This document shows positions 42,001 to 45,000 of a DNA stretch of 64,000 bases, in pieces. Position numbers: made by a program. The stretch's first letter is position 1. Every line of letters begins with the position of its first letter. This DNA comes from Escherichia coli O127:H6 str. E2348/69 (GTDB taxonomy: Bacteria; Pseudomonadota; Gammaproteobacteria; Enterobacterales; Enterobacteriaceae). The stretch lies in NCBI RefSeq assembly GCF_000026545.1, contig NC_011601.1, one strand, 5' to 3'.

Positions 42001-45000
42001 GACCCAGTGTTCACTGGAAGAAGCCACCGAACTGAAACTCGGTATGTTAGGCCACACCTGTTACGCCGAAACAATTTCTGTCTATGGTACAGAACCTGTT
42101 TTCACCGATGGCGATGATACCCCGTGGTCAAAAGGATTTCTCGCGTCATCCTATGCTTCTCGCGGCTTAAAAATGCGCTTTACTTCCGGCTCCGGCTCTG
42201 AAGTACAGATGGGTTACGCGGAAGGCAAATCAATGCTTTATCTCGAGGCTCGATGCATTTACATCACCAAAGCCGCAGGCGTTCAGGGTCTGCAGAATGG
42301 TTCGGTAAGCTGCATCGGTGTTCCATCAGCTGTGCCATCAGGCATCCGCGCAGTATTAGCGGAAAACTTAATTTGCTCATCGCTGGATCTGGAATGCGCC
42401 TCCAGTAATGACCAGACCTTTACCCACTCGGATATGCGCCGTACCGCACGTTTCCTGATGCAATTTCTGCCAGGTACCGACTTTATCTCTTCCGGTTTTT
42501 CCGCTGTGCCGAACTACGACAACATGTTTGCTGGTTCAAACGAAGATGCTGAAGACTTCGATGATTACAACGTCATTCAGCGTGACCTGAAGGTTGATGG
42601 CGGGCTGCGACCAGTACGCGAAGAAGATGTTATCGCAATCCGCAATAAAGCCGCTCGCGCTTTACAGGCTGTCTTTGCCGGTATGGGACTACCGCCAATT
42701 ACCGATGAAGAAGTCGAAGCGGCAACCTATGCCCACGGTTCGAAAGATATGCCTGAGCGCAATATTGTGGAAGACATCAAGTTCGCCCAGGAGATTATCC
42801 ATAAAAACCGTAACAGCCTGGAAGTGGTGAAAGCCCTGGCGCAAGGCGGTTTTACCGATGTCGCCCAGGACATGCTCAACATGCAAAAAGCAAAACTGAC
42901 CGGCGATTATCTCCATACCTCAGCCATCATCGTCGATGACGGACAAGTGCTCTCTGCGGTCAATGACGTCAATGATTACGCCGGACCAGCTACAGGTTAC
43001 CGCCTGTAAGGGGAACGCTGGGAAGAGATCAAAAATATTCCCGGTGCACTTGATCCCAACGAAATTGACTAAGGGTGAGAAATGGAAATTAACGAAAAAT
43101 TACTGCGTCAGATTATCGAAGACGTGCTGGCAGAAATGCAAACGAGCGACAAGTCCGTTTCATTTCGCGCACCTGTCTCTGCAACTGTCTCTTCAGTGCC
43201 AGATACCGAAAATTTTCTGACCGAAATTGGCGAAGCCCAACAAGGCACTCAGCAAGATGAAGTCATTATTGCTGTAGGCCCGGCGTTCGGCCTGGCGCAA
43301 ACCGTCAATATCATCGGTATTCCGCATAAAAACATTTTGCGCGAAGTGATTGCCGGTATCGAAGAAGAAGGCATTAAAGCCCGTGTGATTCGCTGCTTTA
43401 AATCGTCCGATGTCGCATTCGTAGCAGTCGAAGGAGATCGTCTTAGTGGTTCAGGTATTGCTATCGGTATTCAGTCGAAAGGCACAACGGTTATCCACCA
43501 GCAGGGACTTCCTCCCTTGTCTAACCTGGAACTTTTCCCACAAGCGCCTTTGTTGACGCTGGATACTTATCGTCAGATTGGCAAAAACGCCGCGCGTTAT
43601 GCGAAGCGCGAGTCTCCACAACCGGTGCCGACCCTCAACGATCAAATGGCGCGACCGAAATACCAGGCCAAATCTGCCATTTTGCATATTAAAGAGACGA
43701 AGTACGTGGTCACTGGCAAAAAACCGCAAGAACTGCGCGTGACGTTTTAACAAAGGAAACCTTCATGAATACCGATGCAATTGAGTCGATGGTCAGGGAC
43801 GTGTTGAACCGCATGAACAGTTTACAGGATGCAGCTCCTGTTTCTGCGGTCCCCAGCGCGTCAATACAGAGCGCCAAAGTGACGGATTACCCGCTGGCAA
43901 ATAAACATCCGGAATGGGTTAAAACAGCAACCAATAAAACGCTCGACGATTTCACTCTGGAAAATGTGCTAAGCGATAACGTCACCGCCCAGGATATGCG
44001 CATTACCCCTGAAACATTGCGTATTCAGGCCGCGATTGCCAGAGATGCTGGTCGTGATCGCCTGGCGATGAATTTTGAACGCGCCGCTGAGCTTACCTCA
44101 GTACCGGATGATCGCATCCTCGAAATCTACAATGCGTTACGCCCTTATCGTTCGACTAAGCAAGAACTTATTGCCATTGCTGACGATCTTGAACGGCGTT
44201 ATCAGGCCCAAATTTGTGCTGCATTTGTCCGTGAAGCTGCGGAACTTTATGTCGAGCGCAAAAAACTGAAAGGCGACGATTAAGGACGAATTATGCGATA
44301 TATAGCAGGCATTGATATCGGCAACTCATCAACAGAGGTTGCGCTGGCAACGCTCAGTGCAACTGGAGAGTTGTCGCTCGTGAGTAGCGCCCTGGCGGAA
44401 ACCACCGGAATTAAAGGTACGTTGCGTAACGTCCATGGTATTCAGGAGGCGCTCGCACAGGCAACGAAAAAAGTCGGCATCAATGTTAGCGATATTTCGC
44501 TTATTCGTATCAACGAAGCAACTCCGGTCATTGGTGATGTGGCGATGGAAACCATCACTGAAACTATCATCACCGAATCAACCATGATCGGTCACAACCC
44601 GAAAACTCCGGGCGGAGTGGGGCTGGGCGTAGGGCTCACCATCACTCCGCAAGAGTTATTAACATGCCCGGCGGACACACCCTACATTCTGGTGGTGTCA
44701 TCGGCATTTGATTTTGCCGATATCGCAACGATGATAAACGCCTCCGTACGAGCCGGATATCAGCTGACTGGCGTTATTCTGCAACGCGACGATGGCGTAC
44801 TGGTCAATAACCGCCTGGAAATTCCTCTCCCTATTGTTGATGAAGTCCTCTACATCGATCGTATTCCGCTCGGCATGCTGGCTGCAATTGAAGTTGCCGT
44901 TCCCGGGAAAGTTATCGAAACCCTGTCTAACCCGTATGGGATTGCCACCGTTTTCGCCCTCAATGCTGAAGAGACTAAAAATATTGTTCCTGTCGCGCGG

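Follow-up and report, generated by a model that had tools for sequence, protein, structure and literature searches.

The pduC gene of Escherichia coli O127:H6 strain E2348/69, which encodes the large (alpha) subunit of the B12-dependent diol dehydratase, is interrupted by a premature TAA at codon 534, and this stop is very likely an ordinary loss-of-function nonsense mutation, by which pduC has become a young pseudogene, and not a recoding device. A C-to-T transition at position 43007 has turned CAA (Gln534) into an ochre codon, at which the ribosomes would release a PduC of 533 residues that lacks residues 534 to 554. The lost residues are a conserved part of the large-subunit fold, and the truncated subunit would most likely fail to give a working PduCDE dehydratase, which would block the first step of 1,2-propanediol catabolism and leave an otherwise intact pdu operon without its substrate-converting enzyme. 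The features concerned are compiled in Table 1, with positions referring to the window, i.e. the whole 64-kb stretch of DNA that was analysed.

Table 1. Coordinates of the pdu features in the window
Feature	Position	Strand	Basis and remarks
pduABCDEGHJKLMNOPQSTUV operon	40296..54827	+	annotation tables, gene-by-gene comparison
pocR, AraC-type pdu activator	37855..38772	-	3-bp tandem duplication at 38511-38516
Truncated pduC ORF	41408..43009	+	533 codons and premature TAA; ORF list, translation
Premature ochre TAA	43007-43009	+	ancestral CAA (Gln534); C-to-T transition at 43007
Stranded in-frame tail and ancestral pduC stop	43010..43072	+	20 codons GERWEEIKNIPGALDPNEID, then TAA 43070-43072
pduD (beta/medium subunit), intact	43073..43750	+	GGGTGAG ribosome-binding site, ATG 43082; ORF list 43082..43750
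pduE (gamma/small subunit), intact	43765..44283	+	

Translation of positions 41408-43072 yields 533 residues ending in ATGYRL, a stop, the residues GERWEEIKNIPGALDPNEID, and a second stop. At the nucleotide level 42990-43090 reads ...CTACAGGTTACCGCCTG TAA GGGGAACGCTGG...GAAATTGAC TAA GGGTGAGAA ATG, the codons around the premature stop being GCT ACA GGT TAC CGC CTG TAA GGG GAA CGC TGG ... ATT GAC TAA GGGTGAGAA ATG. The initial annotation had placed a TAA 21 codons before the conserved stop and a second stop just ahead of the ribosome-binding site and start of pduD, and both statements are borne out by the sequence, the ORF list, and the translation: the stop at 43070-43072 is followed by GGGTGAG and the ATG at 43082. 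Its expectation that reading through would give 554 residues also holds, this being the length of the Klebsiella oxytoca alpha subunit in PDB 1DIO, of the Salmonella cluster representative (554 residues), and of intact E. coli PduC. The missing part, residues 534-554, comprises 21 residues or 3.8% of the protein. The tail-coding region is now untranslated, and in-frame ATG, GTG, or TTG codons are absent from 43010..43072. The ancestral pduC stop abuts the ribosome-binding site 9 nt upstream of the pduD start, and the premature stop has widened this untranslated stretch from 9 to 72 nt.

The ancestral state of codon 534 can be read from close relatives. In a 141-nt alignment of the window with E. 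coli STEC299, whose pduC is annotated as a normal 554-residue protein, the sole difference is the T (window) versus C (STEC299) at 43007. A 31-mer centred on the codon 534 site, for which megablast seeds only if the central base matches, was found in its TAA-bearing version in three of 5426 complete E. coli genomes and in its CAA-bearing version in 630, so that the premature stop is absent from 630 of the 633 scored genomes. By megablast the pduCD region is present in about 640 of the 5426 genomes, invariably as one chromosomal copy. When public metagenome contigs were scanned for both alleles (Y at the variable base), 40 contigs were retrieved, all of which carry CAA and none TAA. The CAA of STEC299, the 630 genomes against three, and the 40 of 40 contigs together imply that a Gln codon became an ochre codon through a C-to-T transition, as the initial annotation had supposed, and the large subunit has indeed been shortened from 554 to 533 residues. 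The stop thus stands where the ancestor has a sense codon (TAA versus CAA), as in a recent pseudogene. The intact protein in the identical background (Asn57, His465, Gln534) is encoded on 284 contigs and the exact 533-residue product on 74. The two further amino-acid differences between PduC of the window and of STEC299 are common polymorphisms that 109 and 24 genomes share with the window, and apart from the premature TAA no signs of decay were found in pduC.

TAA is carried by three complete genomes, those of E2348/69, of "E2348/69 variety 2", and of a strain engineered from variety 2; their records come from separate sequencing projects and stocks but share one strain origin. The whole 64-kb window is the reverse complement of NZ_CP059840.2 1954719-2018718 with 0 mismatches. 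Outside of these genomes, the exact 533-residue product is also recorded for the separate isolate E. coli 2362-75, and a metagenome scaffold (L007) and the assembly GCA_000249055.2 (L009) encode it too. The latter two differ from E2348/69 by a few SNPs, and both lack the 3-bp insertion in pocR described below, so that TAA occurs in three distinguishable haplotypes. Because of these SNPs and the missing pocR insertion, the TAA must be a heritable allele of a small natural clade that predates strain E2348/69 itself. It is accordingly a real allele, as a recent pseudogene would be, and not an artefact. One of the carriers may be a DEC1-type strain: the accession of the 533-residue product EHU09783.1, which is assumed to belong to L009, is numerically near a DEC1A accession listed in PMC3897749. 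In L009 (AIEV01000035.1), pduA has also lost one base from a run of six A, equivalent to window positions 40401-40406, which splits the gene into ORFs of 37 and 52 residues. This 1-bp deletion is probably a homopolymer sequencing error rather than further decay; a genuine deletion would mean that a TAA-carrying strain had acquired another inactivating lesion.

The second change in the pdu region of E2348/69 concerns PocR. On the coding strand TAA has been expanded to TAATAA, which adds one Ile (...CHAGL-I-TDFS...) and lengthens the protein from 304 to 305 residues. A 31-mer across the insertion occurs only in the three E2348/69-derived complete genomes, and the 305-residue PocR is encoded on 46 contigs, compared to at least 1000 contigs for the otherwise identical 304-residue protein. 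Since the other TAA carriers do not have the insertion, the pduC stop would have arisen first and the pocR change later, as far as the order can be read from these sequences. Such an order would agree with selection on the regulon having ceased in this line, two events being too few for proof. The extra Ile could on its own impair the induction of the pdu genes.

The annotation of pduC as a pseudogene and the lack of growth of the strain on 1,2-propanediol have been published before. PGAP marks pduC as a pseudogene in all three RefSeq records (H4J01_RS09745, BQ9544_RS11720, and BQ9550_RS13830) with the wording 'incomplete; partial in the middle of a contig; missing C-terminus', which leaves the single nonsense codon unnamed as the cause, while the original annotation of 2009 (CAS09680.1) presents the 533-residue product as an ordinary CDS. 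In 2018 Connolly et al. reported no growth of E2348/69 on 1,2-propanediol despite 200 nM cyanocobalamin, and blamed only a 'truncated pdu operon' without naming the lesion (PMC6180029). Because B12 was supplied, missing cbi genes are not the explanation. In the adherent-invasive E. coli (AIEC) strain CUMT8, deletion of pduC abolishes growth on 1,2-propanediol and not on fucose or rhamnose (PMC9220930); E. coli therefore needs pduC for this growth. In the LF82 genome paper E2348/69 is given as the one other B2 strain with pdu genes, and a defect is not mentioned (PMC2941450); a literature search for pduC in E2348 gave no matches. The annotation and phenotype sources do not state that a single CAA-to-TAA change is the cause, that the allele is shared with other isolates such as 2362-75, or that E2348/69 has a private insertion in pocR.

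How much the loss of 21 residues means for the enzyme can be judged from related proteins. Among the closest are the intact PduC of LF82 and STEC299 (WP_001256911.1) and that of CUMT8, which are encoded at the same locus in the same operon architecture with 99.4-99.7% DNA identity; these have CAA at codon 534 and a 554-residue product, whereas the window has TAA. The alpha subunit of the K. oxytoca diol dehydratase (PddA; PDB 1DIO, 1EEX, and others) aligns with the intact E. coli allele over residues 1-554 with 1218 bits, and the tail of intact E. coli PduC, QGERWEEIKNIPGALDPNEID, is 100% identical to that of 1DIO, its 20-codon part corresponding to residues 535-554. The solved K. oxytoca enzyme thus has the last 21 residues, whereas PduC of the window stops after residue 533. 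The order of the genes for the large, medium, and small subunits is common to K. oxytoca and the window. The alpha subunit of the Klebsiella glycerol dehydratase (PDB 1IWP, 1MMF), a paralogous B12-dependent enzyme with another substrate preference that is encoded in another operon (dha), aligns over 2-553 and is full length as well; its tail in 1IWP, SAERWAEIKNIPGVVQPDTI, has retained ERW..IKNIPG as a core.

The tail is part of the curated family models. Intact PduC covers 1-551 of the 552 positions of Pfam PF02286 (1043 bits), a range that includes the tail. The truncated product still scores 1041.6 bits against NCBIfam NF011979, above the cut-off of 788, and is therefore a member of the family, but it spans only 2-534 of the 555 model positions and is thus not covered in full length. 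A search of 1.84 billion cluster representatives was followed by an alignment of 18 homologues at 43-66% identity. All 18 of these distant homologues keep the lost segment, and Arg537 is invariant (19 of 19), Trp538 is found in 15 of the 18, and Gly535, Glu536, and Glu539 in the majority. None of the homologues examined ends near residue 533. The initial annotation had asked whether orthologues naturally end at ...GYRL, and the alignments with the Klebsiella enzyme (1-554) and the 18 distant homologues answer that they do not. Such conservation argues well, if indirectly, for a role of the segment in folding or assembly. A structure of intact PduC predicted from the 19-sequence alignment (mean pLDDT 60.9, tail below 50) was too poor for describing how the tail packs, and for the C-terminal region of the alpha subunit the literature search found only a general review and nothing on the tail.

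In ten of the 13 longer homologues the tail segment runs on into a PduD-like beta subunit, and the tail is kept even as an internal segment in these natural alpha-beta fusions. Such single-polypeptide relatives include P0018, P0019, P0021, P0080, and others, in which the tail precedes a PduD-like medium subunit; in the clearest six fusions the blastp E-values of the PduD-like part range from 1e-28 to 1e-67. The descriptions of PDB 9vi2, 9vig, and related entries name alpha-beta fusions as well. P0016 was rejected as an example, its C-terminal extension not matching PduD.

We infer that the loss of the tail inactivates the enzyme and accounts, wholly or for the most part, for the failure to grow on 1,2-propanediol. 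The explanation that comes closest to competing with this, although it is unlikely, is that truncated PduC assembles and keeps useful activity, and that the lack of growth stems from something else, for instance the growth conditions or the extra Ile in PocR. Only 3.8% of PduC is lost, and the residues that we take to be catalytic or cation-binding (in K. oxytoca numbering Gln141, His143, Glu170, Glu221, Gln296, Asp335, and Ser362) are all present at the expected positions upstream of the premature stop. The rest of the pdu operon is without decay, and the pocR insertion, being private to E2348/69, offers another cause for the phenotype. However, residual activity has to be reconciled with a tail that is present in every homologue examined and includes an invariant Arg537, with the lack of any examined homologue ending near residue 533, and with the inclusion of the tail in both curated models, PF02286 and NF011979. 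The conservation of the tail and the published phenotype point towards a loss of PduC function, with the pocR insertion as a confounder. On the diol dehydratase activity of the assembled alpha2-beta2-gamma2 enzyme, the lack of growth on 1,2-propanediol with B12 bears indirectly.

The remainder of the operon is intact. The 18 other pdu ORFs (pduA, B, D, E, G, H, J, K, L, M, N, O, P, Q, S, T, U, and V) have the lengths of those of LF82 and contain no internal stops, and the PduD protein accession is identical to that of STEC299 and LF82. Within this pdu microcompartment operon, pduD and pduE follow directly downstream of pduC, with hits to PF02288 and PF02287. Because the 18 other ORFs are intact, either the lesion in pduC is recent or the remaining operon is still under selection. 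The whole locus is ordered as in LF82, with cobUST, a short cbi remnant, the cobalamin riboswitch, pocR, pduF, and pduA-V. The cbi remnant is a 'hypothetical protein' of 145 residues (36933-37370, minus strand) downstream of the cobalamin riboswitch at about 37589-37763, and an identical protein is present in LF82. It matches the first 126 of 351 positions of the model of CbiG, the cobalt-precorrin 5A hydrolase, with E = 1e-20 and far below the cut-off, and looks like a remnant of a lost cbi operon between the riboswitch and cobUST.

Instead of being simply lost, the function of PduC might have been given up or changed under selection. In enteropathogenic E. coli (EPEC) related to E2348/69, the allele could have been favoured because a block in the conversion of 1,2-propanediol to propionaldehyde and propionate avoids toxicity or uncouples the expression of virulence genes (LEE) from this gut metabolite in the small intestine, or the 533-residue subunit could have an altered activity, the pocR insertion being a later second step in each case. 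We consider this quite improbable.

The premature stop also leaves a longer untranslated stretch in front of pduD, and translational coupling to pduD may have been lost. A polar effect on pduD through RNA structure finds no support in the fold of 42990-43110 (121 nt; z = -1.97 versus shuffles), in which no pairing that hides the pduD ribosome-binding site was found. The hairpin of this fold lies within the tail-coding region. It is a local RNA hairpin, CGCUGGGAAG...UUCCCGGUG, at 43016-43046, in a part of the transcript that is now untranslated, and no function is suggested for it.

Read-through of the TAA that still yields full-length PduC, whether programmed or due to an ochre suppressor tRNA, is highly improbable. 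The 20 downstream codons are in frame and identical to the ancestral sequence, which fits read-through, but because the mutation is young an unchanged tail is expected anyway and proves nothing. UAA followed by G terminates efficiently in E. coli. The tRNA genes in the 64-kb window are three tRNA-Asn only and do not include a suppressor tRNA, and the ancestor has CAA, so that there is no conserved recoding signal. Recoding would go along with a stop that is conserved in relatives together with a signal or a dedicated tRNA, and 630 of the 633 genomes do not have the stop. In addition, E2348/69 does not grow on 1,2-propanediol (PMC6180029).

The three tRNA-Asn genes (GTT) are located within 4.3 kb at 29062-29137 (minus strand), 30886-30961 (plus strand), and 33295-33370 (plus strand). 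They are interleaved with yeeO, cbl, and nac, and one of them borders an integrative element. This element spans about 3650-28900, adjoining the tRNA-Asn genes, and several of its genes are annotated as pseudogenes. It contains an integrase, two broken integrase fragments (about 23933-25403), a pilV shufflon adhesin, and a type 4 pilin, and further a MobQ relaxase with an internal stop (about 16132-17601), RepL, an H-NS-like protein, and HEPN/DUF262 genes.

An error in sequencing or assembly, or a mutation confined to one laboratory stock, is a practically negligible explanation for the TAA: all three complete TAA genomes derive from E2348/69, but their records come from separate projects and stocks and the same truncated protein is found in 2362-75, GCA_000249055.2, and the metagenome scaffold, which differ by SNPs and lack the pocR insertion, and a read error, the doubt that the initial annotation had raised, is ruled out by the three separate E2348/69 records and the 74 contigs that encode the same truncated product.

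The nonsense codon in pduC is a trait of one lineage and does not characterize EPEC, or pdu-positive E. coli, in general. E2348/69, the prototype of EPEC O127:H6, serves as the standard EPEC strain in the laboratory and has been counted as a pdu-positive B2 strain. Those who use it for studying 1,2-propanediol utilization, microcompartments, or propionate-linked virulence should take note of the truncated dehydratase subunit and of the private insertion in PocR. A single-base repair of pduC in E2348/69 would give a clean isogenic pair.
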